DNA of 50,039 bases, taken from Catajapyx aquilonaris. Lineage: Eukaryota. The DNA lies in contig JYFJ02002838.1 in NCBI GenBank assembly GCA_000934665.2, positions 1 to 50,039 of the forward strand, written 5' to 3'. This document shows positions 1,972-29,479 of the stretch, piece after piece; position 1 is the stretch's first letter; each line of letters begins with the position of its first letter. The translations under genes and the position numbers were made by a program. Below the pieces are notes generated by a model. The model worked only from the letters and a program-made list of their open reading frames with translations. It was not told where the DNA came from and did no database searches.

Positions 1972-2612
1972 TTATTCATGTTGTGATGCATATGTTTTCT
2001 AAGAGGCTTTACGGTAAGTTTCATTTCAGATTCTTGATTATAATATTATGTAGACTTATGGTATGTATAACATCCGGTGTACTAAACATTGTACGTATGT
2101 TTCTGTGACGGGGAGAAGGAGAGAAGTTACTTTGTATAGCTCGCTGCATCTGTTTTTAACCCAACTGCTTGTGTTTTTAAAAGTTCTGGGCTTGTGAACA
2201 CTATGTGCATAGTACCTGTAAGGCAGTACCACACATGCAACAATGTCTAGAACTCATTACAGTTTCGAAAAAGGAAAATAGAGTTGGGTCACAATGCATA
2301 AAGTTGGTTGCACCTACACATGCAGTAGAATATCTATTATCAGATGTCGACATAATAATATTTATGTTGCCATGTTCTGTTGCATGTGCTGCATGCACAT
2401 GCAACAGAACATGCAACCACATGCAACCACATTACAATGTTCCAAATTTTAATATGTTGTCAAGACAATCTTCCTTTGCAAATTACACAAACTCGGGGCC
2501 GATTATCGAGGTTGATTTAATTATTCGAAAATAAAAAAGTGAGCATATGGATGAGATCGGAACTTAGGGTAGCTTCAGTTAGGTACTGATTGATCAAAGT
2601 CCGTGCAAAACC

Positions 2613-2673
<61 letters not shown>

Positions 2674-2720
2674 TCAACAACAACAACAACAACAACAACA
2701 GCAGCAGCAGCAGCAAGCTT

Positions 2721-2770
<50 letters not shown>

Positions 2771-2778
2771 TATTATTA
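2613..2778. repeat. Compound trinucleotide microsatellite (TAA)n-(CAA)n-(CAG)n-aagctt-(TCA)n-(TTA)n
   Basis: Directly visible consecutive triplet arrays. Confidence 0.97.
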
Positions 2779-2869
2779 ACTGCACTTACGGCGAGAAGCA
2801 ATGACAGAAGTGTAGGGTTTGTATGTCCTCGTGTAAAAAGTTCCACACTCAACCTCTCGGATGGAGATG

Positions 2870-2870
<1 letters not shown>

Positions 2871-2905
<35 letters not shown>

Positions 2906-3234
2906 GATACCCCGTGCTCGAGCCTTCGGCTCGTTTAGGGGGGTGGCAGACCACCATACAGTTTTCTATTTTCTTCAATCTCCGTGCAAGGAATACTAGG
3001 ATATAGGGTAGGGAAAGGGATTGTTGGGGAGGGGACACTTGTGCAGGTGCATTGTCCTATGGCTTTTGGGCCATGTGCAGTCCCCCAGGAGGTTAGGTTG
3101 CCAGACACCTCCTTGGTGCAGGTCAGAGACCCTCCTGACGCAGGTGAAAGGAAAGTTCCCCAGGCGGGGATCGAACCTGGGGCCTTTCACTCAGCAAGCC
3201 GTGACGTTACCATCACGGCCACCACACCTCCCCC
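2871..3234 (-). mobile_element. tRNA-derived SINE, family A, full length with (TAA)n tail
   Basis: Minus-strand head ggggaggtgtggTGGCCGTGATGGt...GGTTCGATCC (Pol III A and B boxes). 13-bp TSD cggatggagatgt at 2858-2870 and 3235-3247. Homologous to 13645-14004 and 14213-14560. Confidence 0.9.
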
Positions 3235-3356
3235 CGGATGGAGATGTACTGCATGAGACGGGGCATGAGTGGAGCTTTCATTTGGTATCCATTGCATATT
3301 TTTATTCCCAATAGGCGCCTGACAGCGAGCCGCATCGCCATAAGGCGCCACTCTAA

Positions 3357-3507
3357 AGGCCAAAACACAAAAAGATTTTGCGGCAGCGGCAAGCGGCAAA
3401 CGCGTGCCCCGCCAATTATTATTAATTATTGGCAACAATATGCCGCGCGACAAATATGCCGCAACGCGCGCCGTGTGCCGCGCGACATTTTTTGGGGGAA
3501 ATGGCCT
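3357..3507. mobile_element. PIF/Harbinger-like (Tourist-type) MITE
   Basis: TAA|AGGCCA...TGGCCT|TAA: 3-bp TAA TSD, imperfect TIRs of about 30 bp, internal gccgc repeats. Confidence 0.65.
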
Positions 3508-4049
3508 TAATTCGTATTCCCGCCTCCTTTTTTGCCCTAAGTCACGTGATCCCCCCGTCTACTGGTATATAATTGTGGTCTAAGAGCCCAACATGCAAAA
3601 TTCCAAATCAAAGAATATTAATCCGGGGCCCCTGCTGGCACTCCCACCCCCTTTCCCCCCTTTCTCACCAAACCGGGTTTTCCGGGTTTTTCCTTATGGC
3701 AGCCCCCAACCATGGCAGCCCCTCTTCCGAGCTTAGAGCCTTAGACAGCTGTTCCCATGGTTGCTGTTCCCACCCCCAGAAAACGCGGAGGTATGTCCAC
3801 CTAGCGGCCGGTGTTGTCAGTTCTTGAGTACTCGAATGGCTGCTGCTATGGCAGGCAATGCGGGAGCGACGCTGGGGAATAAGCGGATTGGGAATAAGTC
3901 CAACACGATCTGTTGTGTGGTCGGGTGCCACCATACACACAGCCGAGGTGTGCCTGGAGTTATCCTCTACAATTTCCCAGGAAAGCCCTGGGAAAAGGAG
4001 CAGCGGGAGAAGTGGATCCACGCAGTTAAAAGAGTCAAGTTAGTCAATT

Positions 4050-5480
4050 GACCAATTTCCAGATGCGCGCCTCTCGCGGCCCAATTCGGCCTGCTATCAA
4101 AATGGCGGCGTTATGAGTGCAAGGCGGGACTTTCCTATCCCTGCCCATGTTAAATGGCCTCTGCTTGCTCGCGTCTGGGGGTCTGGCCCCGGGGCAGATC
4201 TTGTTGACATATTTTTTTGTGGAGTGAGGAGGTTCTTGGCCTGCCCTCACCAGGTTCCAAAAGTTAATTGGCCCCCGTGCGGACTGCCCCCGGAGTGATT
4301 TCGTGAACGTGCGAGTTTCTCAATACTAATCCGGCCTCTCATTGTCCGCGTCTTATGGCTTGGCCCCGGGGCAGATCTTGCTGGTATTTTTTTTTGGAGT
4401 GACCAGAGACCGGACCTTCCCTTACCCGGTGTCTGAAGTGAATCGGCCCCGAGGCGAACTGCCCCCGGAGTTATTTTGTAAGTGGTGACGCCGCTTTTCT
4501 CATTATTATAATTATATCCGCCCTCTTCTGTCCGCGTTTGGTGGTTTGGCCCCGGGCAGATCCTGCTGAGAATTTTTTTAAATGGTTCCACTAATTTCAT
4601 AAATTACAGGGTCACATTTTAGACTCCCAGCATAACAAGACTGCTCCAAAAATATGCATGCATACGGTATAGATATACGTATAGCCACATTTATATTTTA
4701 GAAGAAATGACACATTTAAAAAATTAATGAGAAAGCTACAAATTTACACACATATAGTCAAAAGTGAGGTCCATTATCAAAAGGGTTCATGCTCAACAAC
4801 ATCTGCCCCGGGGCCAAACCACCAAACGCGGACAATAATAAGAGGGCGGATATAATAATGAGAAAAGCGCGGTCACCGCTCACAAAATAACTCCGGGGGC
4901 AGTTCGCCTCGGGGCCGATTCACTCAGGCACCGGGTAAGGGAAGGTCCGGTCTCTGGTCACTCAAAAAAAAATTACCAGCAAGATCTGCCCCGGGACCAA
5001 GGCATAAGACGCGGACAATAAAGAGACCTGATTACTATATTGAGAAACTCGCACGTTCACGAAATCACTCCGGGGGCAGTCCGCCACGGGGCCAATAAAG
5101 TTTTGGAACCCGAGGGCGGGAATCTCTTCACTTCAAAAAAATATCTCACCAAGGTCTGCCCCGGGGCCAGACCCCCAGACGCGGACAATCGGAGTCCGTA
5201 TATGAGAAAAGCGCGATCACCATTCACAAAATCACTCCGGGGGCAGTCCACTCGGGGGCCAATTAACATTTGGAACCTGGTGAGGGCAGGCCAAGAACCT
5301 CCTCACTCCACAAAAAAATGTCAACAAGATCTGCCCCGGGGCCAGACCCCCAGACGCGAGCAAGCAGAGGCCATTTAACATGGGCAAGGATAGGAAAGTC
5401 CCGCCTCTGCACATATAAACGCCGCCAGTTTGTTGGCAGGCCAAATTTGGCCGCGAGAGGCGCGCATCTGGAAATTGGTC
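4050..5480. mobile_element. Foldback-type non-autonomous DNA transposon with long modular TIRs (AATT TSD, possibly Sola1-like), inside the transposase intron
   Basis: AATT|GACCAATTTCCAGATGCGCGCCTCTCGCGGCC ... GGCCGCGAGAGGCGCGCATCTGGAAATTGGTC|AATT. Arms are about 4050-4570 and 4790-5480, built of about 175-bp units, around an AT-rich spacer. Confidence 0.88.
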
Positions 5481-6683
5481 AATTGCATCTCTGTGCATTT
5501 GGATTGGTCCCTGTTCCTCCTCAGGTGGGCTGGACCCGGGGCAAACCGTCCCTGGATTTTTTGAGGGGTGAAGGATCCTTGCCCTTCCTATTGACCTGAG
5601 TTTGGGGGGGGGGGTGTTTGGCCAGGGGCAGCCCTCCCCTGGGCTGACTTGCTCCTCAATGTCTCCTCTGAAGATTACAAACACAAGTCACATACTGACT
5701 ACAATATTGCACTTTGGGGGAGGCTCTGCTTGCTTACTGTAAACTCATTAAAAGCTGCACGTCAACACTACAATAAATTATATAAGTGTACTAGCTCATT
5801 GCCCAGAATAGAACTGACCACCACATAGTGCAACAGATCATATTCATTCATTTTTTCATTACATCATGGCATTAATCCCATAACGGGGTAGCCAGCGACG
5901 ACTAGTGTACACCGTACCCCTAGCCATCTCGATTGACCAATACAATGAAATCTTTTGGTGACTGGTCATTGCCATTTGAAATATGCTGGTGATCTAACTA
6001 ATTTTTGATACAGTCCGGTTGATTTTTGGGAATGATACTTAAGAGCCCAGAGTCACATACCCAAAGGAATATACCTTTCAAGGAATTCATGTGCAACCTG
6101 TTATTTTGCAGTTGTGATGGAACACCCTGGCGACCAACGAAATGGTCCAGGATTTGCAGTTCTCATTTTGTTGGGGGGAAAAAATCAACACACCCAGATC
6201 ACCCTGCCTTTGTTCCCACCCTTTTCCCCGACATGTACAGACGTCAACCCCCCACCGAAGCAGGCCAGAGGAGAGGACTGCTACGTGCAAGTAGGATGCA
6301 ACGTGCTGGATCAGTACCCAAAGAAGATGAAGATGCTGCAACATGTATTCCTGCACATGGAGCACCTGGAGAAAATGGAGAAGAAAGAGTACGTCCAACA
6401 ACAAGCATTGCCGTACAAACAGACCTTTATGCAGAATCTGCCGTCACCGGGAATATGCCACTTCTCTGCTGTGTCCAGATTAGGACTTGCAATGCTGAAA
6501 CAGGTAACATGAAATGTGACGCTTCGACTCACACCGTCATCCCTCCACACAAACAACTGTGTAATGCAGGAAGTCAATGTACAATTACCCCTCGTGTTGC
6601 CCCAAAGTGTACCAAAAAAGGTTTTATGATGTAGCAGATAATGGTGAGGTAGGCTACTGTATGAAATGACAGGAGTTACACTT

Positions 6684-7352
6684 GAGGGGGTGAAAATCAA
6701 AAACCAACAGCTCCGTCATAAACGTAACGGAGAAAAACGAGAAAAACCTACACTTTCGCCGTATGTCAACGTAGACACCTGAATGTAGCGGCTATAGATT
6801 CCTTTACTAGCAACACAACCATTGGTAAGTTATTATGAAATCATCCGCCATTACCCAATGAGCTGTGGACCGTCCATTCCGCCACTGGGCGGTTTTTGAT
6901 TTGCAACAGCTGGGAGTTGGCGGTTTTTGATGCAAAATTGAGTGAGGGAAACATGAAACACAGGTTTATCCGGCGTGTAAATGTTTAAGTTTATTCCACC
7001 CTTACATACCAACGTTCTATTGCATTACGCAAGGTGTTCTGTTAAATGCGCATCTCATTCGCACCATCGTTATCCGTACGAGCTTCGCAGTATGTACTGT
7101 CTCCCATAGCTTTAGTTTCGTGATGGAGCTGGCGGTTTTTGATCTGTAATTTTCTGCGAGTGGGGATGGAGCTGGCGCATGGCGGTTTTTGTTACGGAGG
7201 TCATTTTTCACCCCTGCATTTGACGGCTTTGTTGTAGGGTTTTAAATACCATATTAAGGTATTATGTACTCCATGGCATGAGGAATGCATTGCCGGCGCT
7301 AACTCATTTTTTTTGTTTTTTGGAGCTGTCGGTTTTTGATTTTCACCCCCTC
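6684..7352. mobile_element. Sola2-like non-autonomous DNA transposon inserted in the transposase CDS
   Basis: ACTT|GAGGGGGTGAAAATCAAAAACC(A/G)ACAGCTCC ... CTC|ACTT: about 31-bp TIR, GAG termini, 4-bp TSD, internal ggcggtttttg repeats. Removal restores the frame MTGVTL|VTFTTLL. Confidence 0.88.
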
Positions 7353-8089
7353 ACTTGTCACGTTCACCACATTATTGACACTCATTTCTTCATCCCTCAA
7401 AGACACGCATGGTATGACTAGAGAAAATAAGTTGATGCTGTTCTTAATGAGAATGCGATTAGGAGTAACATTTTCTGCTCTATCTGTTTTTTTTGGCTGT
7501 CACGCAACAACTTGTGGGTATTTATTTCATCAAGTCTTGGAGCTCGTATACACTGCCACACACAACTGGGTATTTTGGCCAAAAAAAGGAAACTATCCAA
7601 GAAACAATGCCAGAATGATTTAAAAAAGATTTTGCGCAATGTCGTGCCATTATTGATTGTACTGAAATACTGGCTGAGAAGCCCCAGTTGGGGAGGGCCC
7701 AGGTATAGGCTACTTGTACTCGCACTATAAAGGGGCATATACAGTCAAGTTTCTCATAGCCATTGCACCTAACGGCTTTATTTCATATGTATCAGACTGT
7801 TATGGGGGAAAGGCAACCGATTCCCAAATCACTATTGAGAGTGAATTCATACAGGCCCTTGAGCCTGGTGATGTAATTTTAGCAGATAAGGGATTTCCAC
7901 AAATTCTGACGCATATAACTGAAGCTGGTTGCTCTTTGGTGATGCCGCCATTCGCAAAATCCGGTGAGTCCCAATTCTCTCAGGTACAAATGGAAGACAC
8001 TTAGAGAATAGCTTCAGTGAGGGTCCACGTTGAAAGGGCAATTTACCGAGTGAAGTATTTTCATGTTTTGTGGAAAGTAAGTATAGATG

Positions 8090-8687
8090 CAGTAAAACTT
8101 CTATAAGTCGAACTTCCTTAAGTTGAAGTTCTCTATAAGTCGAATAAAATGAAGAGCTTGGTTAGTCACAATGTAAAATAATAGAAAATAAGCTTCCCTA
8201 ACTGGAATTTCTAAAACGCGAAGTTCTCCATAACTCGAAGTACTGGCAGGGCCTTACGATGGGATATCAATGAATTTTCAGTCCCCATAAGTCGAAGTTG
8301 ATGTTGGCGAGTAAGGAAAATTTTCTCATTTCCCAGCCAAAGGGTCAAGAGTAGGCTACATGTACAGAAAGGCTCAATCTCCTGATCTCCATCTACCAAA
8401 CATACCGGAAGACGTGTTTGACTCGATTGTGACAATTGAATCCTTGAATCTAAGAGTAGACAAATGTCCATAACTGAGTTGTTTTTTTTTACAATAAAAC
8501 AATGAGGAACATTGTAAGTGTGATAGTGACAGTTATTTCTACGTTTTGAACACCTTTCGTCACTGGATATAAGGCTTCCTTACAGAGTTCTGTGCTTTAA
8601 AAAATCCAAACTTCTCTAACTCGAATCTTCTGTAATTCAAAGTTTTTTCCCGGTCCCATGGAGATTCGACTTATAGAAGTTTTACTG
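8090..8687. mobile_element. pogo/Tigger-like MITE inserted in the transposase 3' end
   Basis: TIR CAGTAAAACTTCTATAAGTCGAA; right flank TA, left flank TG (decayed TA); internal ataagtcgaa/taactcgaa repeats. Removal restores KVSID|SYPHVDK. Confidence 0.9.
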
Positions 8688-8969
8688 TAGTTATCCCCAT
8701 GTAGATAAGTTCATAAGATGTTGTTGTGCATTTGACAATGCTATGGGACCGTTGATTCGGTAAAACGTGAATATAATAAAATAGGTAAGGTTAATTAGGA
8801 AATAAAGCTATTGATCATGTTCAAGGTTTATTTTGTCTTTTGATTCTGTGTAACTTATCTGGCTTTAGAGATCAAGGCCAGTCATAAACATCCTTTGCAG
8901 AAAAAGTCATGCACAGTCATGTATAAACTATGACTACGACTATGACTATGACTCGTATATATACAAAAT

Positions 8970-9545
8970 TTATGTGACATTCTTGACAATGAATGGTAAG
9001 TATGTTTTAAAATAGAAGTCTTCTAGTGCAGGAATAAGGGAGGAGAGGAACACCTCATCTTTTTCAACATAAACCAGAACTTGTTCTGTTTTTGCATAAA
9101 ACCACAAGTGGCACAAGGTACACCCAGTTACGTACATTCCCACTTGTATCTGTGTGTAATATGGGTGTGTGGGTTTGAGCTATATTGCGGAGTCATCACT
9201 CAACACTAGATAATCCCATGGGGCTTCTTCGATTGAGGATCAATGACCTCACCTTGTCGACACTTAATATGGGCACTTTATCTCCAGAAGAATCATTTTG
9301 TCTTTTAGAATGCTATTGGGTGAACAGCACAACCAACTTTGCCCATCACACACCACTGTCCCCACAATATGAACTCTTCCATACTTCTACTCGTACAGCT
9401 CCCGTGCTACACTTTCCATCTTCACCCAATAGTTCATGGATGCCACTCTGGCCTCTTTTGCAAAAATGAAATGATGTATAAGCTTCTCCCTGTGAGCGGT
9501 TCCCGGTCTCTTCATTGCAGAACTGATTTGGTGTGCTCTTGTGAC
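8970..9545 (-). pseudogene. YqaJ-like (lambda-exonuclease fold, PD-(D/E)xK) nuclease pseudogene, 5' truncated
   Basis: Minus-strand translation: MNYWVKMESVARELYE*...GTVV...WLCCSPNS...LLEIKCPY / LKPTHPYYTQIQVGMYVTGCTLC...DEVFL...LEDFYFKTYLP...*. These are decayed versions of the YqaJ motifs G..E, SPDG, EIKCP and YY.Q.Q. Absent from the ORF track because of stops and frameshifts. Confidence 0.88.
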
Positions 9546-10288
9546 AAAAATTCCATAATGAGCAAATTTCTAGACGAAATAGGGTTAAATGATTTTAAAA
9601 TAGCAAGGTACTTCCAGCACTAAAGCAACATTGAATACCTCCACAGTCTAAAACGTTCATACATCGTTCTTGGTCATATTTTACTACTTGATAGGAGTAT
9701 TTAATGCACAGTACAGTACCTACTAAATTATAATGAAATTCGGGAGAGTCACTGCAAAGCTAGGCTGAAGCAGTGACCCTTCCTGACGTCCGAAATGCCC
9801 TCCTAGTGGCCCTATTCGCTGGCACGTTAAGATGTAAGTTCGATCCCTGGACCTTCGTGGGTTAGACGTTAGATGGAACATGTGGGATACTTCTCGGAGG
9901 CAGCACCTGGCCCCACACCCGTCTACCCTTTCCCCCTTTTCCGCCAATAATATAAAGGGGTCTTGTGTTGAGTCAGCCCTTCGTCAAAAACACCTCTGCA
10001 CATTCACGTACTCAATTGCGATCCTTATAAGCAAAAATTGGTTGATATAGAATGGAGCACATGGTTAGGGGCACAACAAGCTACAAAAAATTACTGCTAT
10101 CGGGCGATATCAGTTATCAAAAAGTGACCCACGAATCTGGAACACCCTGTATATGATAGTAGTGAACCCGTCGCCAAAATTAGGCAACACTGCCCCCCCC
10201 CCCCCCCCCCCNGTACAATATGCCACTTCCAGTTGACGCGCACCCTCCCTCTGCACCCTACTCCCACTCCATGTGGTAACTACATGTA

Positions 10289-10436
10289 TAATCTGTCTCA
10301 ATAAGGTTTGGCCACTTTATCCTGGTCTTGAAGCAACCCTTCGCACAGGCCCCACGGTGAGCAGGTGTGTGTGTGTGTGTGGGAAGGGTTGCTTCAGGAC
10401 CAGGATAAAGTGGCCAAAACTTATTGAGACAGATTG
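10289..10436. mobile_element. Tc1/mariner-like hairpin MITE
   Basis: About 55-bp TIRs (c/t)aatctgtctcaataag.tttggccactttatcctggtc.tgaagcaacccttc, TA flanks, (TG)n inside. Confidence 0.85.
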
Positions 10437-10868
10437 TACATGCACCTATAGGTGATGAAACAACACGTGCAAGGACAAAGTCACGCTTACCCAATTCTAC
10501 ATAATATGAAAACGCGGAATTAAGAGTGATGTCATTCAGTATAAACTACCCAGCGGGGGTGAGGGGGTGGTGGGCTGTGTATATAGCCTACAGCCAACCG
10601 ATGCGATGCCAAAAATGCTTCTAGCTCACGCTACATTCTATCACCAAACTTTTCTAACCGCTTTATTCATTTGTCACTCGTTATTTTATGTCGAGTGAAT
10701 ATTTTAATGTGATGTAAATTTTAAATTTACAGTTGACTATGTATATGGAAGGCCGTTTCTTGGAACATTTAGATTTTTCTCACCTCTTGACCTGTTGGGG
10801 ATTAGAGGGAAATGGTTTGAGCATGATATAGCTATTAACTGAAAACCTTTCACATGCATGAAGAAATA

Positions 10869-11262
10869 CAGGGTGGTTCAACTTCAAGTGTCGTTTTATA
10901 ATGGCTATTAATAGAAGCGCTTTACGATTATCGTAGCAGCCACGTGTAAAATGGCCCACTTCGGTGCCATCGAAAATATTAGCTGTGTTTCGTTTGCCGG
11001 CTTCCCCCTTGCATTACAGGTCCATGGTCCATCTGGTGCCTTGGACGTCACCCATTTCACCCAGGCGCATCGCAGGTCATGTGTGCACCTCCTTTTTTCC
11101 AGGTCAACCCAGCAGCAGGGTTGATCACATGTGTGCTGCTATTGGCAGCGAATATTTTCGATGGCGCCGAAGTGGGACATTTTACACGTCGCTGCTACGT
11201 CATCGCAAAATCACTGCTATTAATCGCCGTTATAAAACGACACTTGAAGTTTGACCACCCTG
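10869..11262. mobile_element. Tc1/mariner-like MITE with long TIRs of about 115 bp
   Basis: TA|CAGGGTGGTTCAACTTCAAGTGTCGTTTTATAA ... TTATAAAACGACACTTGAAGTTTGACCACCCTG|TA. Confidence 0.9.
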
Positions 11263-11753
11263 TATATGGTTATGTGTGTCATGAAGTTTGTCACGGGAAT
11301 ATCCCTATTGAAATACTCAATCAAACCTCACCGCTCTCTGTGATAATTACAGTATTTTGATAATTAAATCAATTTAATATGGCTGTTGAGTTTGGGGTCG
11401 CGACCCTCAGTTTGGGAAGCACTGCACGAAGGCCTCCGCATATAACAGTTTTGTGTATATTTTAGTATTAAAGAAATAACATATTTTAGATATTTTTGAC
11501 AGTTTTGTATTTACCAAGCCAGGGTACTTTACAATCATGCTCCGTTAATGTCTTGGATACTTGTCGGTGTCTTTCGTTGGATTCATGATGACAGTTTCCG
11601 TTAAATAGGAATAACACCCCTAGGGCACACCGTAATCATGCCTCATTTATAATAATTATGCAAAGGGATCGTATTTTGGTCTTATAATATAGGTTCAGAG
11701 CCCTTATTAAAGCAAATGTGGGAGTTACTTGCCACCATGTTAAGAGTACAATA

Positions 11754-12035
11754 CAGTAGAATATGGAATATTGCGGACTAAACGTAACGGCATAGCGGTA
11801 AATCCGGATAATCAGGATCAGGAAGGGGGGGGGGGGGGNGGGATGAAACTCAGCACTTTACGGAAAGTGGTTCCAAGTGAGGTGTTTAAAATCAAGTTTA
11901 CTAAATGATATATAAAATGTGAGAAAGTAGTGACTGTGATAATATGGATCAATGTTTGCATGCCATAATTAGAGATAAATAGCAAAATATGTGGATATTC
12001 AGATAAATCGGAAGTCCGGATAATCGAGACTGCTG
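11754..12035. mobile_element. Degenerate pogo/Tigger-like MITE
   Basis: TA|CAGTAGAA... left end; repeated tccggataatc motifs; right end gtccggataatcgagactgctg. Confidence 0.45.
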
Positions 12036-13276
12036 AACTCCAATTTGGTGTTCCCGAGCATATTATTCTCACGTTCGATTTAAATTAAAATTAAAAGAAG
12101 GCGCTTGAAATACTTTTCACTCTCATGAATACATTTGTTATTAACGTCTTTATCGAGTACGTGACGGTATGACGTCATAATTATGTCTGGCTACGTGCCA
12201 CGCCGTATCCGACCATGTACAGTACAGTACTCCCGGTTCCTCAAGGTCTTCCTATTTTTTCTCTCTGCACCGCTCCCATCAACCATTGCGTATTTCCCAT
12301 CATCCTGTGCGGTTGGGGACTATAATATTGAGCCGCCTCCACGTAAGTAATTTAGTCACACTTGGCAATCACATTATCACTTTTTAGTCCAGGAATGGGT
12401 ACATTCGAAGGAAATAATTTCATATTGAGAGACCGAATGTGGCAGGGGTAGGGGCACGCTGTACCAACATACTCCTTGCCGGCGGATACACACCATCCTT
12501 CAGCGGATCCACGCCTATCTTTCAGCAGATACAAGTCAGCCTAGGAAAATAGGTAAAAGTGCGGGGTCTCCCGATATGAAAGCGTAGGGCCCATTAGAAT
12601 CTAATGACGCAGTTATAAAAATTTGCAACTGAGCTTTTATAGTGTAGTAGGATGTTGTACTGGTGTCGAGTATAGGTATCATACTTGTATAGCCATTGCT
12701 GAAAGATAACATGACAATATTATTGTGCTCTCCGATAGAGCTGTCATTCTATAGTGTATTCAGCAAAAAAAAAAAAAAAAAAACCGCGTGGAGCCATCAT
12801 GGGAAAGGGAAACACCATTATCACCACGGGTCCACTTGAGTCTGAGGCGTTAAAAATCGTTTTTTGAGATAATAATACCGCTGGAGAGCGCAGCCATCTG
12901 GCTCCCTGCTGATCCACTCATCATTCAGAATAGCCCCATAGATCCTGTCAAAAAATTATAAAGTTTTGTCATTTCCACGCACACTTTCCTGGGCACATCA
13001 TGTCTTTTGTTTCGCTCGAAATTGGCTTTTTTCAGCCAAACTTCAGATGAAATGCAGTTAAAAAATCCCAGCCCCTGCTGATCTTAGTGAGATGATAAAT
13101 TTCCTAAGGCTGGAAGATGTAGGAAAAAGGGACCATAAGTTTTCAGAAACTGGGCAAAAAATTCCACATCATTGCGCTTATTATTAATTGTTGACAAAAA
13201 AAAAATCAACAATTAATTACAAACGCCTACCAAGTTCGATCTTCCCTTCTTAAGTAACGACGCAGCAAATAAAAAC

Positions 13277-13475
13277 CCTATTTTGAATGTCCCTCGCAAA
13301 CTTGCTAAGGGCGTGGTCTAGCAAGTGTGTTGTGTCAGGAGGCCTGTCACCAACCCAAATTGCGAGAGTTCCTGGAAATCAATTCCCGCAATTTGGGTTG
13401 GCAAGAGTCCCAGCCACGTGACACTTGCGAGGCCACTCCTCCTAACAAGTTTGCAAGAAACATCTAAATTGTGGA
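13277..13475. mobile_element. Old MITE or inverted repeat
   Basis: About 55-bp imperfect inverted arms (atgtccctcgcaaacttgct...gtggtctagcaagtgt versus acacttgcgaggccac...acaagtttgcaagaaacat). No clear TSD. Confidence 0.55.
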
Positions 13476-13644
13476 CCCTGTTGATCTACGCTTCATACCA
13501 ACAGTAAGGGAGATCAGTATCGGTTGTAACACTTTTTAGTCTGGATTTTTAAATATTCAGTTACATTATGCATTTAGGCAAATATTTATGACGTGGTGGA
13601 AATAAGGGAACATTCTTCTTTGTAAAATTAACTTATGAAATCTT

Positions 13645-14004
13645 GGGAAGGTGTGGTGGCCGAGATGGTAACGTCTTTGGCTTGCTGAGTGAAAGGTCCC
13701 AGGTTCGATCCCCGCCTGGGAGTTCCCTTTCACCTGCGTCGGGAGGGTCTCTGACCTGCACCTTGGAGGTGTCTGGCAACCTAACCTCCTGGGGGATTGC
13801 ACATGGCCCAAACTTGAGACAGTGCACCTTCACCCGTGTCCCCTCCCCGAAAATCCCTATCCTTACCCAATCTCCATGATTCCCTGCACCGGAGTGAAGT
13901 TAACATAGAAAATTGAGGAAAAATGGCGGTGTTCCACCCCCCTATAGAACCCGTAAGGGTCATCACGGAGTACAATAAATAAATAAAATAAGTAATAAAC
14001 ATGT
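13645..14004 (+). mobile_element. tRNA-derived SINE, family A
   Basis: A box tggccgagatgg, B box ggttcgatcc, (AATA)n tail, short flanking repeat aaatctt. Confidence 0.9.
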
Positions 14005-14212
14005 TAAAATCTTAAGACTAAAAATTGATAGATTTATAAATACTTTTCAAATGCAAGGCAGAGTGTTACAACCGAGACCATCATATCGGGACGATTGTAA
14101 CATTGGGCGGGTTCGATCGTTGACATAAATGGTAAATGTAATATGGAAGAACAGTTTACACCCACTCATCTTCTCGACAATTGTCTTATAGCCTACTTGA
14201 TCTACCTGGATT

Positions 14213-14560
14213 GGTTTATATATTTACGTTACCCCGTGATAGGGCCAGAGGCCCGTATAGGGGGGTGGAATACCACCATTTTTCCTTCAATTTTCTGATT
14301 TTTCTTCTAACTCCGGTGCAAGGATGAAAGGGCATGGGGTAAGGATGGGGATTTTTTTGGGGAGGGAACATGGGTGCAAGTGCAAAGTCTGATATGGGGT
14401 CATGTGCTGTTCCCCAGGAGGTTAGGTTGCCAGACACCTCCTTGGTGCATGTCAGAGACCCTCCTGACGCAGGTGAAAGGGAACTCCCAGGCGGGAATCG
14501 AACCTGGGACCTTTCACTCAGCAAGCCAAGACGTTACCATCTCGACCACCACACCTCCCC
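14213..14560 (-). mobile_element. tRNA-derived SINE, family A
   Basis: Homologous to the other family A copies; 14-bp TSD gatc(t/c)acctggatt at 14199-14212 and 14561-14574. Confidence 0.9.
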
Positions 14561-15700
14561 GATCCACCTGGATTACTCGTTATCTCTCGATACACTGGAA
14601 TTTATTCAGCAGATAAGTATTACAAGTGAAAGGATTTTTTATTGATATAAACTGGTTTTATATGAGGGTTTATTGCATAAAATAATATTTATTTCTACTC
14701 TCGCTGTCAAATATGTAGCTGTAACATATGTACACAGACTTGACCTTTCATGAATTTACCATGTTACAACGGACCCCATATTGGTCCAAAAGTGCATAAG
14801 ACCGATTTTTCCATTGACGACTCAGTCAGATTGGGTCATTTGATCCACACAATCGAGCAATCTCGTTCACATGCAAGACACCGTCAAGAGAGATGCGTCG
14901 TCAGCCTTACAAGTAATACCACGAGCATCCTTTCTGTAACGCAGCCGATTTCACCTATCGCTGGCTGTCCTCTGACATTGGGACCTACCCACCCTCCCAC
15001 CATATTGAACGCATGCGTCCAAAGCGCGCTTATTTTGCCAAAAAAGTGTCGGCGCCTGGCCGACACCAAACAGGTTGGCTGCAGCGGTGCTCCAAGCCAG
15101 AAGTGGGTTTGGGACTGGTCTGATCGGAAGCCGGGTGTACGTGTCTTCCGGGGAAGACGGCTGTACCAGGTGAGGCACAGTGATTTTTTTTGGGAGGGAA
15201 ATAGTTTTGTCTCCTGGGCAATTATAGTTTGTATTAATTAAATCCATTAAGCGGATTAGAAGTTGGCGGCAAATATCACATGGGAGGTGTTGATGTAATG
15301 TAGTATAATTTGGTGCTTCCTGGTTGTATGCTGACCACATTGTACACAGTGGCGTACCGTGCAGGAACGCAGCCATATATAGTAAAATCATTGGAGTCAA
15401 ATGAGGTTTGCTCATTTGCCATTTTCTCACCGCTCGTCGCATCAGCACACAACCATCGCTGAGAGAAAGTGTAAGTGCAGACGTAATTTGCGATGTGCCT
15501 CGGTTTATGAAAGAGGACAACACGGCAAACTTGCCGGAAAAGGCTTTTCAACTTGATTTTCTTTAAGACTGACTGAAATTTGCATCAATACGAAACGAAA
15601 TTGCATCAATACGAAACGATGCGTTCAGGTAGGCCAATTAGGTTGATCAGTATGTTACTGCGGTAGGATAAAATATAAATAGCGAAAGTCTTTACATTTA

Positions 15701-15857
15701 CAGTAAAACCTCGATGTAACGCTCTTCAAGGGACCGCCCAAAAGTAGCGCTATAAGCGGGAAGAATTACCTTATGGAAAATGATCAAGGGACCGGAAAAG
15801 GGGGCGTTAAAAGCGGGAAAGCGTTATATACGGGAGCGTTAAATCGAGGTTTTACTG
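15701..15857. mobile_element. pogo/Tigger-like MITE
   Basis: TA|CAGTAAAACCTCGAT(G/T)TAACGCTC ... GAGCGTTAAATCGAGGTTTTACTG|TA. Confidence 0.9.
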
Positions 15858-17035
15858 TATATTTACTGTGTCAGTTGCCTAAGGTTCCTTACTACTAAGG
15901 CTGATAATTGCCGTAATTTATTGAGCGTCCTAATCGTTTTAATTACCTCACAACGAAGAATTATTATCGACAGAGTAATATGATTATGCCGCTAGCTCAT
16001 GTAGCTCATAACTGTAACCTAATGTCACTCCGACTTTGATTTGCAAAGGGAAAGTACGTGGATGATGAGCGATATTTTAGTACAATTTGTCCTTATTTTG
16101 CATTAGCAATGATATTATATGCGGCGCAAGTTGGGGCATTGACAGGGACGAACTAAACTTCCCGTTTTTATTACAGGAACGGATTAAATTAAGTAGAGCA
16201 TTTTGTGTCTTGCGTTTAAAAAAAAGGGGGAGACCTGCCGATTTTCTAAAGTAGCAAGCGTTTCGCTAAATATTCAGTCGGCATATTTCAGATACGCCAC
16301 TATGCATACACTTTAAGAACTTCTGAAAAGTCAGCTAATAAAACTGCTTATGCTGTGGAAAACCTCAAGAAAAAAAATTACTACCATGGTGGCATGCAGC
16401 CGCAAAATTAAAACACAATTCCGCACGTTTAATTACGTAAGCGTTGAAATTTTGCGGAATGGGAATCGCAGTCAGACTTTCCCTCAAGTTACTCCTCCCA
16501 GTTCGCAAACTTCACTGAGCTTGTCAACGGCACAGTACGACGCTAACGATGTTTCTATTCTTCCGAGTAAATTCGTCACAGAGCACAGATGGCTGGCGAA
16601 TATATCTCCCCCTTCCCCCCCATGGCGAAACAATAACTGACATTTCACGTCAAAATGAGTTATGTACCCTAGCTATATAGTCATACAGTGCAACCAGTGC
16701 AGAGGGTCACATTTTTGGTGGTAACTGTGAGTCCATTATAGAGACGGAGATACGCCACTTTTGTTGTCGAAGTCGCTAAAATATATTGCGACCTTTTGGG
16801 GGACATATCCACCCCCCCAGTTTTTCAGTCCCTGTGTTGACGCTTTTACGATTTGCTACAAGCATTATTTCATCCAGACCACTTTCAACAAATTGGATGT
16901 GCATGATATTTTGGGTTATACGCCATAGAAACTCCATCTGAAATTATTAGCGCACACGTAGCGATGTCTAGTGGCTGAGAGTTTCAGAACGGATAGTGGT
17001 TGTAATATATTCCAAATTTAAAATTGTCGTATTTA

Positions 17036-17292
17036 TTTTATTTTATTTTATTTATTTATCATACTCTGTGCTATAGAGCCTTTGGCTCCCTTAGGGGGGT
17101 GGATTACCACCATTGGATGGGACCAGGGATAGGGAAGGATGGAAGCGGCTGTGGCCTATTTTTACGGAAACGACCCCGGAATTGTCCTGGCGGGGACCAT
17201 GGAAAACCACAGCAAACCATGGGTCCCCGGGATTCGAACCCACCTCCCGATTAGCAGGCGGGCTCCTTATCCCCTACACCAACCTGTTTCGG
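17036..17292 (-). mobile_element. tRNA-derived SINE, family B
   Basis: B box gggttcgaatcc on the minus strand; A-rich tail; 17-bp TSD taaaattgtcgtattta at 17019-17035 and 17293-17309; homologous to 32824-33117. Confidence 0.9.
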
Positions 17293-18327
17293 TAAAATTG
17301 TCGTATTTACATAACTAGGTAGCATTTTTCTACATGGCTAGTCGTATTCATAATGAGCCAGGAAAGCCAGAATTTTCCGCCTTAGTTCAAAGAAGAATAA
17401 AAATGTCCCCAAAATTTCAGTCAAAATTATTTGACTTTTCCAACCGCATATCTAGAACTTTTTGCCCAATTTGACTGCTTTAGGTTTAAATCGAGTCGGA
17501 ATAATCTGGACCAGCAAAAATGCGCATTTGTGGTTGACGTGCGTAGGTTGAGCGAAACTTCCGGTGCGCTCACAGAAAATCGCGTATTATGCGAACTTAT
17601 TTGATAGACAAAATCTGAATCCGGAGTATATGCTATACCCTGATTATCCGGGAACCGTAATGTGGAAGTTTGGTTAAAATGACGTCAGTAGTGGAAATGG
17701 CGCCTACTTTTCCTCGAGAAACAGCGTCACGCGCTATTGCCCGTGTTCAAGCGGATATTTCCAGGCTCTGAAACCCGATTGGTTCATTTCAAATTCAAGG
17801 ACACATCTTGCACTGGAAGAGGAGAAGAGCTGGACAGGTGCATCGTCGCTTCTCCTCTTCTATACAAATAATGTTCGTTGGTGTGGCACTTTTCCAATAT
17901 TTTCCATGCGAAATATTGCGTAGGCTTGGAAAGTGAGGTTTCGCTGTGGGAAGGAACACCGCGAAAAAATAACATCTCCAGGAAAAATGCAAATATCGGG
18001 GTGGTGAGAAGGTGGTGCGATCGTGCCAGATTTATGCTAAGGAAGATCGTGTAGGAAGAGTGGAGACGGGAGTGGAAGTGGATCTAGATATAGTACCCTG
18101 TTGCGTTGTAGAAATAATAACCATTTTGGCCTGACCCATCACCAGAACTGATAAATCATATTGGCCCTATATGGTTCTGAAACTACAGTGGTTATTTATT
18201 TATTTATAATTAAATCGAGCAATTAATTTTAATTTTATTCCTATATGTTTACGATTATCTGCTATCCATTATGCTCTATTCAACAATACAACGCATTTTT
18301 CTCAAAAAAAAAAATATAACGAAGTTA

Positions 18328-18519
18328 AGGCCGGTATCCACGTACGAGAATCTCGCATACGAGGAGCCGCGAAGAGCCAACTGCGCATGCCCAGATACGA
18401 GGAAAGGGGGAAAAAGTAGAGAATTTTCTACTTTTCCCCCCTTTCCTCGTATCTGGGCATGCGCAGTTGGCTCCTCGCGGCTCCTCGTATGCGAGATTCT
18501 CGTACGTGGATACCGGCCT
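18328..18519. mobile_element. PIF/Harbinger-like MITE forming a near-perfect 192-bp palindrome
   Basis: TTA|AGGCCGGTATCCACGTACGAG...CTCGTACGTGGATACCGGCCT|TTA. Arms of about 93 bp with about 2 mismatches and essentially no spacer. Confidence 0.92.
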
Positions 18520-21500
18520 TTAGTCTTGAAAGCTACTGGTTACAAAATCCTTCATTGCCTGTGCAAGCCTTCCGATTGGCCCTTGCCACATATTGTTACC
18601 AGCGCCGCTTCCCATTGGCCCTAGTTCTACGCATGCGCAGTGGGGTGAGAAACATTCCATTCGTATTCTGACGGGCGGAGAGTGCACATCTGCCACCACC
18701 TCTCCCGTAACACCTCGTCGTGTCCAAATCACGGTGACCTCACAGCAGGGTAGTAGGGGGGAGTGGAGGGAGGTAGCAGGATAGATGGAACGCGTACTAA
18801 AATCGAACCTACACTACAGTCGGGATCTGTTGTTATCAGTGGTGCCTACTTCAAGGACGTTTATAAATAAAATAATTTCAGTTTGTAGCGAGGTCCTTAC
18901 CCCCGCGCCCCTGGCGGGAAGAGAGGGTAGGGATATGATTGGGGGATGGGTATAATCACTGGCTATAAGTCCGAAGCGATTAAAAATACGGTGTCCACCG
19001 CACGCGAGTGGTTTTCTACGCCTGCGCCATAGATAAATGCGCTATTCTTTTGTGTCCATAGGCGTAATAAAAAGACAAAAATGTAGATGTACTGGCGACA
19101 GGTGGTGATAACTTAGTGAAATGCACAGCTGCTCTCTTAGCTCCTTTTCGTGCACCTGTGTCAGAAGAAAGGGTTTCATCGGAGCACGTTTTGGCATCCT
19201 ACAGTACGTGTTAGCTGAGAAGAAAACTTGAAGAAGCCATTTGAAAGTTTCTGGCAGGGTAACAGTGCGGCGCAAACTTGAGGATAAAATCCTTTATGTT
19301 TTCTAGTCCGATCGTTCGACTGAAGTGTTCAAGACTCTACAAATAGGAATGTGCTGGTGTAGCATGCGAAAACAACTTGTTTCACCATCTTCAATGTACT
19401 CAATCGCATTTCGGACAAGCTAAATGCGTTACCGTGCAACTTCACCTTAAATTTTTTTTAGCGTGTTTTCGATCTACTCTTTGATACACTCTGACTTGGA
19501 CCTTTGAGTAGGCTATACTACAGGAAACTGTGTATTAGGATGTTCTGATGTGGGTTTTCTCGGTATCCTCCTATTGCTTCACACTGTCAAAATCTATCAA
19601 CAGCGCAGGTAATACACTATTGGCAATATTGACACAAAATATGTGACAGATACAATAGAATGTGACAAAACGAGCAGTTTGTGGCATGCGCAATAAGCAG
19701 TAGAACAATTTTAAAAATAAATCACGACGTCTTCTCATTAGGAGAATGGTCTCTAGAGACGTCAGGACCAAACTGCCACCTGTTCAGACAGGCCCACCTG
19801 GGTGGTCCAGATTCATGACGGACTACAACAGAGAATACGGTGGGATCCCTGGAGTGCACTAAAGTTGTTGTGGTTTAAACATTTACACAAGATGGGATTT
19901 ATGTGCAGAGGGACATCGTAGGCTACGCCGATTTAAATGTCACTCTAGGAATCTGCCACTGACAGTGAAAAAACAGTCCAGACGTACCTGTCACTCACTT
20001 CAGCATACATAGGCTACCTATTTGTAAGACCGCATTATTCTGCATTTGGATTCGCCAGAATGTTGCCATTCAATTTCTTTTTGCGTCATTGGCTGTATGA
20101 CCTTCTTGAATGACACAAGAGGACAACTATACTGATGTGTATTACTGTGAAGATTTCCTGCGTAGAAGGACCACTTTATACTCCATATAGTCCATACACA
20201 ACCATATGTGTGTTAAAGACTTGAAATTGTGCCATTTTTGTGTTGGCGGATCTACAGAGTCAGTTAATATTACGCAAAGCAGATGTGGGATTTCAAAAAT
20301 CAAATATTAATTCAGTAAAACTGCAGTCTGGTATAGATTTGAGAGGCTTTAATAACGTTCAGTTATGCCTTTATTGTCAGTAATTATTAGCTACCCGAAC
20401 AGATTGGTGTTGTCTGACTGCATAAATAATTAACATAATGAGACCGGTTATTGTGGCAGGGTATATCAAATTGAATTAGTATTAGGTATCTCTGAAGCTC
20501 TGCAATTTAAAACGGTAATTTCTTAGAAATAGTGGCTACAAAGAGATGCCTCTGTTGATTAGTGTAATCCCTATAACAAATACTAATACCAGCATAATGT
20601 TTATCGCCACCTTTACTTGTAGTTTCATTACAACTGAAACCACAAACGCCACTCTCTAGAATACCGCGTTCGTTTAAGTTTTGTTGGGTTAAATTTTCCT
20701 TCTTTGTATATCGGTACATAGTGTTTCCGATCTGGACTCACAAGTGACTTAGTTCATGCTTGAAGGTTTTTGCCAAATAAAAGTTTCTATAAACTCTACG
20801 GCGAATGTTTCTCATTGAATATATTTAGTTTTTATATAAATACCTGACTACAGAACAAAGTTCCATTTTAGGTGAAATATAGTTAGGTACTCTGTAATAT
20901 GAGCTTGAAGATTATAAATAATTGCTGTTCTCGTGAAGAAATTACAGTGCTCTGCAGAAGTTTGATTAGTCATAGCGAATATCCCTGTGCATTATTTTAC
21001 CCCGTCATAATCATGACTTTAAAATAATTACTTTGAATTGGCCTATTTCATCGAATAGAGTATACCTGTCTGATAGTACTTTTCGTGAAATATGCACACC
21101 GTTTAATTCAAGATTCGATAACATTTAAGAAATGCATGTCACGTTAATTCTGATACATCAGTTTCTGTAATGTCGCTTTGTAAAATTTCTGGAATTTCTG
21201 ACACTACAAGTACGTGAAGCAGATGATGGGCTGATGACATGCCAATTTATATGTAATAGAATAATGTTGAAAGCCAAGTAAAATCACGTCCAACTACACC
21301 CGATTATACCAAAATTCAGTAAGTGCTGAGCTGAACAGTTTCAGGTAAAGCCCCATCACAAAGATAAGCCAATTTGTAATAATAATTCTTGGAATAAAAT
21401 ATATCAGTCATTGATATACATTAAAATTTAATCAACATTAATGCACAGTTCAGAGTTGAACATGTCATGATCTTTAATCAGGCATATGTGGCACAGATGA

Positions 21501-23870
21501 CAGTACATTGTTACTATATGCCTGAAAATAGCCATTTTTGTCAAAAAAAATGCATTACTGCCAAGGAAAAAAAATCAGCTGCGGAAAAGGTTGCGTAATA
21601 TTACCTCTTCAGGGTATTTGTTCTTTCACTATCGATCCTAAAAGGGATAGAACTTGGGTAGCTTGAATTCGTGACGATTCATTGAGGATGATTAAGAGGA
21701 TGATTGAAAACCGTATTCGCGACTATGGTAACCCTGCATTACAGCAAGTAGATTACTCTCTTTCCCGTGTTGTTTGCCGAACACTTTGCCATCTGCCTGT
21801 ACCTTCATCACTCCCACGTTGCTCACTCCTCCGCAAAATTTGTGGCCTGCTATATGCAAGAGATGACCCCTCAATTCTCAAGTGTTGCCTCGCCGCTTCT
21901 GCAACTTCCGCTACCTAAATGTTTGTCGTCACTGACACATGTTTCTAACATCTAAGGTTCAGGGTGGTAGAACTATACAACTGATAAGAATTAATTTGTC
22001 CCTACAGGGGGCTTCATAATGATGCATATAAACATCTAGATGAGATCTTGTTGGGTATTGGAATATCACTTATGTAGAGGTGTAATTTGGTCTTGAAAGT
22101 CTCGTTACGGAGATAATTGGCGAAATGTAGAAATTACATTACATCCTTTGATCGCTATGGGGACCAATTGCCGCCTCCACATAAAGTAACCCGTTTGAGT
22201 CCAGGACTTGGCCATAGTTTGTCTAAATCGACATGTAACATCATGTATAATATTATTGAAATGGTAAAGTTTAACAACATATAATTTATACACAGCTAAA
22301 ACTGGCTAAGGGAGCCCAGGCCGGGATTCGATCCTCGTACTTCCTGAGTGGAAGTCACGCCATACCCTGCTCTCCGACAAAGTGCCTTGTTCTTCCCCTG
22401 AATGATAAATTCTCAAGACTATATGCCCTTTACTTGCGCACTAGATTTTTTGACCTGTTTCTCATTGTTGAGATAAGCGGTTTCCTGACTAAGTTTGCTG
22501 GTGTCCATCTGACAGTCGGGGAATACTGACACGCACGTAGTTTTGATATAAATTGTTGTAGATGAAACCAGTTTGGCCTATGTTAAGCTTAGTTTGCTTC
22601 AAACAGACGAGGCAAACATTTCTCAGCATAAATATGCATAGATTTTAAACTCATTATAGTGCTGCTTATTTCCTTAATAGGAAGGCATAAAAGCGAGGCG
22701 CGGTGTTGAATAGTACAGTACGATATATCTCGGATTTAGCTCGACCTTTCAATATACCGTGCAGGTAAATGAGGAGGAATTTGGACATTTGTATTTAATT
22801 ATTTTCGTTGTTGTATTGCGGCTAACACACGTGATTAATTTCTTAATGTCAAAATTTCATGCAACCATTGAACCCTCAGCCGTAGTTTTAATTAACAGAC
22901 TCAATATATTTATTGGGAGAGAGACAGGTCCGATATGTTGTCCTTACGCCTGCGGGTTATGATACACGTGCTACAAGGGTGTGGTTGCATAACAGGTCAG
23001 GATGAAGGCGAAGGACATGGATTTCCTTTCACTGGACCATGTGCATGTTACGTGATAGTCCTTTGGCTAACTTCACCGTGACATACAGTGTTCCTATTTA
23101 AATGATAGGAGTTAGCGATTTTTCGGTTGACATCTGCTTTATAGAGTTTATCCGGCATATTCATTTAGTGCATGAGCTAATTTGACAAACATACTGTATC
23201 CTACATAATAGTCGCAGTAACATTGGATTATACATAATTACCACTACATAATAATTTAAATATACACACATGGCTGTTCAAATTGTACACGTCAAGTGAC
23301 CATTCTCAGAAGGCGATTTTCTGTACAGAGTATGAGTTCAACATTTTTTTTAGCAGGAGGAAGCTAGGAGAACCATTGAATTCTGACTTCGCCCATACAT
23401 TATTTTCATTTTGTGACTGGCTAGATGCTCTCATAGATATTTGCGCAAAGCACCTTCCGCCACTCACCGTAGATCAGATCCATTCAAGATGTAAGCCTCT
23501 GTGACGCATCTTCTATACCAAATGCTTCTGTAACCTAGAGTAGAAAGAGTCCGTTTACCATCCGTATAGGCTACGCTTTACATTAACAAGTACCATTAGG
23601 CTAGTACTAGTATCAGAGCAAGAGCTTAATGCTTGCAGGAAAGGCCATCTGACAGTTATTCGAGAATGTCGAGTGATTAATTGTTGCAGGGAAATGCTTT
23701 CTGCTTCGGCAGTGCCGGAAATCCCTCAACAATGCTTGGACCTCCAGAGTGTATAGTCTAAGGAAGTTGCTGTTTCCTTTCATAGACGAAAGAGTGATAA
23801 CTATACTGGTCTACAGGAGTAGCTTCGCCCAATATACACAATTTTAAATAATTTCTTTTCATTCTTTCAG

Positions 23871-23925
23871 CAGACAACAAAATCTGTCCGTGAAGAAGAA
23901 TACGGTGCGCTGTTCTACATTACCG
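23871..23925 (+). other. Candidate short internal exon, probably 5' UTR of the AstA receptor
   Basis: Strong acceptor atttcttttcattctttcag| (CAGCAG tandem acceptor) and donor ccg|gtaagc, on the same strand as the receptor. Confidence 0.4.
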
Positions 23926-28805: not shown

Positions 28806-29479
28806 ACCTGTTCCAGATGATTTAAGAGTTGAGGCTTTTCCGAAGACATTTCCTACTTGGGTTCCCACGCTTCAATTGCAGTAGTGCTGAAACTTTTCCC
28901 CCTTGTCAGAACTCTTGTATTTTTGGCAGCCCGCTAAAAACTTTCTTTTCATTCTTTATTATAATTTTACTTCCCATTCCGTTCGATAAATTTGAGGTTT
29001 CGTGACGTTGGAACCGAATTAAAACTTTGACGCCTAGTCAGGACTAAAACTAGGACTTCATGTACGGTAGTGAAAAAGGATCGCTCTTTATAGCAGTTGT
29101 ATAGAGCCGGAACATTTTGAGAAGAAGGCGAAAGAAGTGGCAGAGAGTTCCAATTTAAGAGCTGAACGTTCTATTTTGGGATAATTTTTGACGTGCCGTG
29201 GAAAACAAAACTGAATTTACGCCCCACTTTTCGCTTCGTGTTTCTTCTCGGAAGACAGAGTGGCTCTTTGTGGCCCACGGTGTTTGTGTGTACTGTCAGC
29301 AAGAAAAAAAAAATGGTGCAAGGTTGCGATTCGTCGGACTAGGTCAAGACCTATCACCATGCTGTTATAAAGTTATACTCGAACTTGTCAATTGATCAAC
29401 TGATTACATAAGCATTTGTTCAAAGAAAATTTAATTGAAGAGATGCTACACCCCTGACGGTCAAGCAACAAGATTCAAG

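Follow-up and report, generated by a model that had tools for sequence, protein, structure and literature searches.

The stretch of DNA analysed here (the window) comprises positions 1 to 50,039 of contig JYFJ02002838.1 of Catajapyx aquilonaris, has a GC content of 42% and is rich in transposable elements. It carries an ISL2EU-type transposon with two genes, an old, dead and decaying copy, in whose transposase gene the seven-letter word TAGGCTA stands at each of two frameshifts, at 6650 and at 7706. The word has the shape of the footprint that an excising transposon of the Tc1/mariner type leaves behind (TA, three bases, TA), and ordinary excision scarring of this kind, by a donor with GGC/GCC tips that is absent from the window, is the explanation which we prefer, with a probability of about 60%. 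It draws on a TA-duplicating surplus of exactly five bases at 7706 and by the enrichment of the word throughout the window.

The host transposon and the lesions of its transposase gene

The assignment of the host to ISL2EU, made in an earlier first-pass annotation from the letters of the window, was supported by the domain architecture and by the remnant of a second gene. The THAP, HTH and DDE domains which are the transposase feature of the ISL2EU group were all recovered by Pfam, with E values of 1e-12 (HTH_Tnp_4) and 3.1e-19 (DDE_Tnp_4) for exon 2, and exon 2 was also matched by blastn to contig L001. This contig holds an intact relative which has the exon layout of the window copy and colinearly encodes the closest protein, P0001 (73% identity across the DDE part). 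The following parts of the window copy were recognised, open reading frames being abbreviated as ORF:

3911-4048, + strand: transposase exon 1, N-terminal half of the THAP finger (Pfam THAP, E 1.7e-5, residues 59-101 of ORF 3737-4048), exon layout as in L001
6113-8763, + strand: transposase exon 2 (end of THAP, linker, HTH_Tnp_4, DDE_Tnp_4), with at least eight lesions
8976-9551, - strand: second gene, of which a remnant (putative YqaJ-type exonuclease half) interrupted by four in-frame stops was hit in tblastn by translated ORF2 of L001 (50% identity, E 2e-58)

Lesions of exon 2 were called by reading the three frames against homologues, and two nested miniature inverted-repeat transposable elements (MITEs) with terminal inverted repeats (TIRs) were delimited among them, all on the + strand:

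6620-6628: probable frameshift between GF and YDVA, relatives being two residues longer (GFHGY)
6648-6666: +2 frame shift, site 1, a 19-nt interval
6650-6656: TAGGCTA of site 1, a possible GGC scar, inside that interval
6655-6661: TACTGTA, the canonical CAG/CTG-type scar word, its first TA shared with site 1 (stacked text TA-GGC-TA-CTG-TA)
6684-7352: MITE 1, nested, TIR GAGGGGGTGAAAATCAAAAACC..., internal GGCGGTTTTTGAT repeats, 4-bp duplication ACTT (6680-6683 and 7353-7356)
7582-7588: A7 run with one extra A, giving a frameshift between WVFWP and KETIQETMPE
7616-7618: in-frame TGA (MPE*FKK), where relatives have Ser, Cys or Val
7678-7708: +2 frame shift, site 2
7706-7712: TAGGCTA of site 2, between the motifs IIDCTE and YSHYK, on the TA of a Tyr codon that is conserved
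8002-8004: in-frame TAG replacing a conserved Tyr (DT*RIASVRVH vs DTYCIAAVRVH)
8090-8687: MITE 2, nested, tips CAGTAAAAC...GTTTTACTG, with a TAGGCTA at 8352

Since relatives carry two extra residues at GFHGY, the window copy is likely to have lost either about 7 nt or 1 nt at 6620-6628. When MITE 1 is taken out the frame is rejoined (GVTLVTF vs GVLPATF in P0001). Contigs of MITE 1 have a read depth of 2600-4200, and the copy number of MITE 2 is very high, with a summed contig depth of about 1e5 as against about 30 in single-copy DNA.

The surplus at 7706

The frame change at this site is bounded by position 7678 and by the stop at 7706-7708. In five of five homologues the spacer from IIDCTE to YS.YK measures 15 residues without a gap, and alignment A1 shows two pieces of the window, 7619-7705 (...GRAQV) and 7711-8001 (YLYSHYK...), meeting with neither gap nor overlap. 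As these pieces tile the 15-residue spacer exactly, the surplus is exactly five bases at 7706, and because the TA is duplicated it may be placed at 7706-7710 or equally at 7708-7712. Set against the five homologues, the site therefore displays the step typical of a footprint, from a single TA to TA, 2-4 nt and a second TA. A plain TA had been expected here in related copies, and L001 indeed has the TA of the Tyr codon at this place (att-TAc-tgt), with no intron; removal of five nucleotides at 7706 restores the Tyr, which is also found in P0001 (QIYCYSHYK). A tiny intron at 7706 or at 6650 was ruled out, P0001 being colinear with L001 at both places. That site 7706 is an insertion which turned TA into TA-GGC-TA is very probable.

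The site at 6650

The first-pass annotation had placed TAGGCTA (6650-6656 and 7706-7712) exactly at both frameshifts, and the word does lie inside both intervals; as both shifts are +2 modulo 3, removal of GGCTA, or equally of TAGGC or AGGCT, restores both frames. The claim that both sites are GGC scars fared less evenly, for while the net gain at 7706 is five bases with a duplicated TA, site 6650 can be fitted with a surplus of 2, 5 or 8 nt and overlaps a TACTGTA that had been missed.

The frame change at 6650 is bounded by stops at 6645-6647 (LYEMTG frame) and 6667-6669 (DNGEV frame). Every frame-restoring removal of 2, 5, 8 or 11 nt was scored against four homologue segments, and the best sums for 2, 5 and 8 nt are nearly equal (164, 162 and 163) as compared with 148 for 11 nt. 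The linker concerned counts 10, 10, 11 and 15 residues in the homologues and 9 after a five-base removal. With both overlapping words taken as scars, 10 nt would be in surplus and the frame would not move by the +2 that is needed. Such a double scar was rejected, since the frame that it connects to on the upstream side is the wrong one, a stop codon is crossed and the match to YD.[VI]A disappears. A second stacked case is found at 12218-12229 (TACAGTACAGTA), where two TACAGTA words overlap.

The strongest competing explanation concerns this site only and takes its lesion to be a CTG-type scar or a plain indel of 2 or 8 nt, TAGGCTA being native or irrelevant, so that the transposase would hold one GGC scar and not two. 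It draws on the near-equality of the three sums, on the linker of the closest relative, which is one residue longer in this variable part than the five-base model yields, on the overlap of TACTGTA with TAGGCTA, either five-base removal restoring the frame, and on the presence of CAG-tipped donors in the window. The CTG-type removal at 6655, however, scores clearly lower than the GGC-type one (141 vs 162; 47 vs 55 against P0001 alone) and puts a Gly where four of four homologues have Leu, Ile or Val, and the chance that TAGGCTA should fall inside a 19-nt interval is about 0.005. In the explanation that we prefer, TAGGCTA at 6650 is probably a five-base excision scar as well; the site is compatible with a scar of the GGC type, for which we would put the chances at even, and the competing explanation falls somewhat short of that.

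Abundance and distribution of the scar-shaped words

On the two strands of the window TAGGCTA is present in 16 copies (on the + strand, 9 TAGGCTA and 7 TAGCCTA). At least 15 had been counted by eye; all 15 listed positions are real, and a 16th, at 23597, had been overlooked. The 14 copies outside the two transposase sites, none of which lies in a recognisable reading frame, are as follows (those on the - strand read TAGCCTA on the + strand):

8352-8358, + strand: TAGGCTA inside MITE 2
10584-10590, - strand: TAGGCTA in a repeat-rich bin
14189-14195, - strand: TAGGCTA in a repeat-rich bin
19509-19515, + strand: TAGGCTA in single-copy DNA (4040-nt contigs, 0-1 differences in four runs)
19919-19925, + strand: TAGGCTA in single-copy DNA
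20010-20016, + strand: TAGGCTA in single-copy DNA
23567-23573, + strand: TAGGCTA in single-copy DNA
23597-23603, + strand: TAGGCTA, 30 nt from the 23567 copy
33989-33995, - strand: TAGGCTA
34546-34552, - strand: TAGGCTA
43010-43016, + strand: TAGGCTA
44041-44047, - strand: TAGGCTA
48408-48414, - strand: TAGGCTA
48906-48912, - strand: TAGGCTA

The excess asserted in the first-pass annotation proved to be real and specific to the word. Dinucleotide shuffles (n=100) gave 4.73 +/- 2.15 copies with a maximum of 13, none of the 100 reaching 16, and a Markov model of order 3 expects 3.5. A model of order 5 expects 7.5, a figure that is partly circular because the 16 words themselves supply most of the TAGGCT and AGGCTA counts (16 of the 23 TAGGCT, the next base being A in 16/23). 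All single-substitution neighbours of TAGGCTA are less frequent than the word itself, with 0-8 copies each. When all 8192 strand-pooled seven-letter words were ranked by their Poisson P under the order-3 model, TAGSCTA came ninth (16 vs 3.5, P 9e-7) and TACWGTA seventh (28 vs 8.5). The first six places are taken by simple repeats and the eighth by a word from a local foldback repeat, which leaves these two as the foremost complex words outside repeats, both of the form TA + x-N-x' + TA. Among the 32 TA-NNN-TA words TAGSCTA is likewise second, after the canonical TACWGTA. The central base is G/C between G..C arms and A/T between C..G arms (TAGWCTA has 6 copies and TACSGTA 5), so that both central-base variants occur between complementary outer bases, as in footprints and as a model of paired overhangs would lead one to expect. 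The flanks of the 16 sites are unrelated and none of the sites lies inside within-window repeats; were 16 words placed at random, the probability of one falling into each frameshift interval would be about 2e-5, a value calculated post hoc.

Read contigs were laid over 5500-24500 at 80% likeness. The four read runs used come from a single sample of a single study, which is probably the source of the assembly itself, and they therefore lend no independent support. The transposase family has a depth of about 5x in these contigs. Five of the 10 contig-covered TAGGCTA sites lie in single-copy DNA, and the single-copy sites between 19509 and 23603 have the same letters in all four runs. A paralogous contig of 706 nt (5952-6624, 34 differences) ends 26 nt short of site 6650, and among the indels listed for these contigs (12 of 135) none falls at 6650, 7706 or 8352, which gives no verdict either way.

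Donor elements

The inner bases of TACWGTA are the tips of elements resident in the window, as three TIR pairs (found at a threshold of at least 13/20 TIR matches) and MITE 2 have CAG...CTG tips. The three pairs are:

10867-11264, strand not assigned: TA-flanked MITE, tips CAGGGTGG...CCACCCTG, a donor type for TA-CWG-TA scars
15699-15859, strand not assigned: TA-flanked 157-bp MITE, tips CAGTAAAACC...GGTTTTACTG
35188-35351, strand not assigned: TA-flanked MITE, tips CAGTCC...GGACTG

Three of the 28 TACWGTA copies are themselves element tips with a TA duplication. With four TA-flanked, CAG-tipped MITEs in the window, such elements were once active here, and the earlier description of a process visible only through its scars was overstated, CAG-type scars and their donors being found side by side. 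The tips of MITE 2 (CAGTAAAAC) are pogo/Emigrant-like; no TA flanks this element on the left, and its segment 8265-8413 is absent from other copies.

Candidate repeat ends for a GG-tipped element, GGCC at 17154 and 32963 and TAGGGGGGTGG... at 2936 and 13944, were rejected, being internal to a repeat that resembles a short interspersed nuclear element (SINE). This SINE-like repeat is tRNA-derived (GGGATTCGAACCC box), has a very high copy number and was noticed at 17100-17300, 32900-33120, 2936 and 13944.

Interpretation and alternatives

In the explanation that we prefer, a cut-and-paste transposon integrating at TA, with the chemistry of the Tc1/mariner/pogo group, would have entered the ISL2EU-type transposase gene, by then inactive, and left it again some time afterwards. 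Its transposase would cut the non-transferred strands at a distance of three bases from the element's ends, on the inner side, and each flank would keep the TA together with a 3-nt 3' overhang of the element tip, and end joining would then pair the two overhangs around a central mismatch to give TA + 3 nt + TA. Tips of the type CAG...CTG would yield TACAGTA or TACTGTA in this way, and tips of the type GGC...GCC (or GCC...GGC) would yield TAGGCTA or TAGCCTA. We infer that excision produced the GGC words and that some other part of the genome holds, or once held, a donor with GGC tips. Of the earlier proposal that an element with GGC...GCC ends had inserted here and excised, the insertion at 7706 and the enrichment of the word support the event, the donor staying hypothetical. 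That the transposase has two of them mirrors the density of such scars in this DNA at large (about 12 excess words per 50 kb) and does not point to a targeting of the gene.

Besides the near-equal sums and the ten-base arithmetic at 6650, a number of observations weigh against excision scarring by a GGC-tipped element. As the first-pass annotation had found by eye, the window holds no such element: the TIR-pair test returned no TA|GGC...GCC|TA or TA|GCC...GGC|TA pair in the 50 kb, whereas the same test returned three clear CAG pairs. We know of no Tc1/mariner/pogo group with GGC tips, although no systematic search was made for one. In the repeats of the window none of seven five-base insertions (95 insertions in all) is of the TA-NNN-TA type, a test which is weak because all seven belong to one foldback family. 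The enrichment itself is 3- to 4.6-fold and comes from a single 50-kb window. Furthermore, TAGSCTA is preceded by G or followed by C in 14 of 32 flanks, as compared with 21% over all TA, and a preference of the form G-TA...TA-C is not known to us from Tc1/mariner targets. Lastly, of the 8 pairs of TAGSCTA neighbours less than 1.1 kb apart, 7 agree in their central base (P 0.026 in a permutation test made post hoc), which is unlike what random mismatch repair predicts.

The flank preference is shared by TACWGTA (G before or C after in 19/56 flanks vs the same 21%); GTACWGTAC has 7 copies and GTAGSCTAC 3, and GTAC makes up 4.7% of TA sites. Clustering of TAGSCTA positions is weak (5 gaps below 600 nt, P 0.09). 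Target choice, local hopping or strand-biased repair could lie behind the flank preference and the shared central base.

Among explanations that address the words as a whole, one invokes a recurrent small insertion other than excision, such as repair of breaks made by a TA-specific nuclease, or templated fill-in, which would turn TA into TA-GSC-TA. It would suit a real insertion at 7706 whose donor is not in the window, as well as the G..C flank preference of both word families and their same-orientation clusters, which are not features known to us from Tc1/mariner scars. In shape (TA duplicated, three nucleotides, outer bases complementary) the word nevertheless matches the canonical footprint exactly, donors for its sister TACWGTA lie on the spot, and we know of no process with a TA-specific nuclease in animals; we regard this explanation as unlikely. 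Marginally less credible still is coincidence combined with word bias, in which TAGGCTA would be a common native word and both frameshifts unrelated small indels on or beside it. The fit of a 2- or 8-nt surplus at 6650 is in keeping with this, as is the order-5 expectation, by which part of the excess lies in hexamers, and the finding was made post hoc in one window; against it stand the surplus of exactly five TA-duplicating bases at 7706, the small probability of hitting both intervals, the failure of every shuffle to reach 16, the lead of TAGGCTA over all of its single-substitution neighbours and the circularity of the order-5 figure. A functional, strand-specific motif kept by selection, e.g., a protein-binding site, would agree with the like orientation of 7 of the 8 neighbouring pairs, but is very improbable given that two copies break the frame of a decaying transposon, that the flanks are unrelated, that the word follows the footprint grammar exactly, with a twin, TACWGTA, explained by resident elements, and that the literature matches listed for it are only bacterial operator sites and unrelated uses.

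An extension of excision scarring can be imagined, in which a TA-targeting hit-and-run family with GGC/GCC tips swept the genome, leaving a scar in about every 4 kb but hardly any resident copies, and excising far more often than it stayed. We consider this rather doubtful; if it were true, the scars would contribute measurably to frameshifts, and their G-TA-C context and locally uniform central base would record target choice and strand-biased mismatch repair. Should ordinary excision scarring be correct, excision scars would be a noticeable mutational input in this genome, the excess in the 50 kb being about 12 words of the GGC type and about 20 of the CAG type, and such scars could betray a transposon family of which few copies, or none, are left. 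For annotation it follows as a rule that a five-base, TA-duplicating insertion can account for a frameshift in a pseudogene. The mutation is of a known kind and the understanding of transposition is unchanged.

Further features of the transposon and the window

The transposase exons are separated by an intron of about 2 kb, filled by a long foldback (4045-5485) with arms of up to 171 nt and nested inverted repeats containing CCCCGGGG. The exonuclease remnant at 8976-9551 is presumed to be of the YqaJ type from the ISL2EU layout in PMC4482050. An upstream search for the N-terminal half of the second gene (ORF2), which would have covered 9712 and 10584, gave no significant match, and no window TIRs resembling those of L001 were found at up to 3 mismatches; the ends of the window copy were not located.

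Positions 1-5126 of L001 comprise an apparently intact ISL2EU element, with a THAP exon, an intron of 590 nt and an exon-2 product of 461 residues, and a second gene (SWIM-like + exonuclease) with one intron. Its termini have TIRs 19 nt or more in length and an AT duplication within AATT, with CAATTG at both ends.

Elsewhere in the window, a single-exon gene of 405 residues at 29435-30649 (+ strand) encodes a rhodopsin-family G-protein-coupled receptor (7tm_1, E 8e-62) and is the only long ORF found intact; it is also the sole clear host gene noticed, and contains no scar words. Two short foldback- or MITE-like inverted repeats were observed in addition, one at 10283-10442 (65-nt arms, 94% complementarity) and one at 18335-18512 (perfect 16-nt arms, TA-flanked, tips TCC...GGA).

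Comparison with known systems

Tips of Tourist-like MITEs and PIF/Harbinger elements often start with GGC or GGG and are in this respect like the words of the window. The target duplication given for PIF/Harbinger in PMC4482050 is TWA, however, and not TA. In the window a T precedes the word in 4/16 sites and an A follows it in 1/16, and scars of the form TTA...TTA or TAA...TAA therefore do not fit; Harbinger scars were ruled out on these flanks as the origin of TAGGCTA. Scars of ISL2EU itself were ruled out on the flanks as well, since ISL2EU duplicates AT, not TA, and is unable to explain TA-GGC-TA.

ISL2EU elements form part of the PHIS superfamily (PIF/Harbinger-ISL2EU-Spy) and are characterised, in the portion of PMC4482050 devoted to them, by a transposase with THAP, HTH and DDE parts, a gene for a YqaJ-type exonuclease and the target A|AT|T. 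The window element is like them in its THAP, HTH and DDE transposase and in the remnant of a second gene, putatively a YqaJ-type exonuclease, on the opposite strand, and unlike them in being dead and in having ends that were not found. L001 agrees with the reported target in its AT flanks inside AATT and differs in its tips, which are TG...CA where GG is usual.

A literature search for TAGGCTA or TAGCCTA together with 'footprint' returned, among the matches listed, bacterial operator sites and unrelated uses, and nothing on transposons. The described groups of Tc1/mariner/pogo have CAG or YYAGG tips. From such footprints the window words differ in their three bases, GGC/GCC, which are not tips known to us from described TA-targeting families, and in that no GGC donor was found in the 50 kb. 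The footprint of Sleeping Beauty is TACAGTA/TACTGTA and arises, according to PMC6943129, when the DNA is cut a few nucleotides within the element and the ends are then joined; those of the window, unlike these, were read from old genomic DNA and not from an observed excision. With the footprints of Sleeping Beauty and Tc1/mariner they have in common the form TA + 3 nt + TA, with a net gain of five nucleotides at a former single TA. As in Tc1/mariner footprints, complementary outer bases enclose a central one for which there are two alternatives, and coding DNA is frameshifted, and the CWG form of that footprint is the most enriched complex word of the window, with its donors resident.

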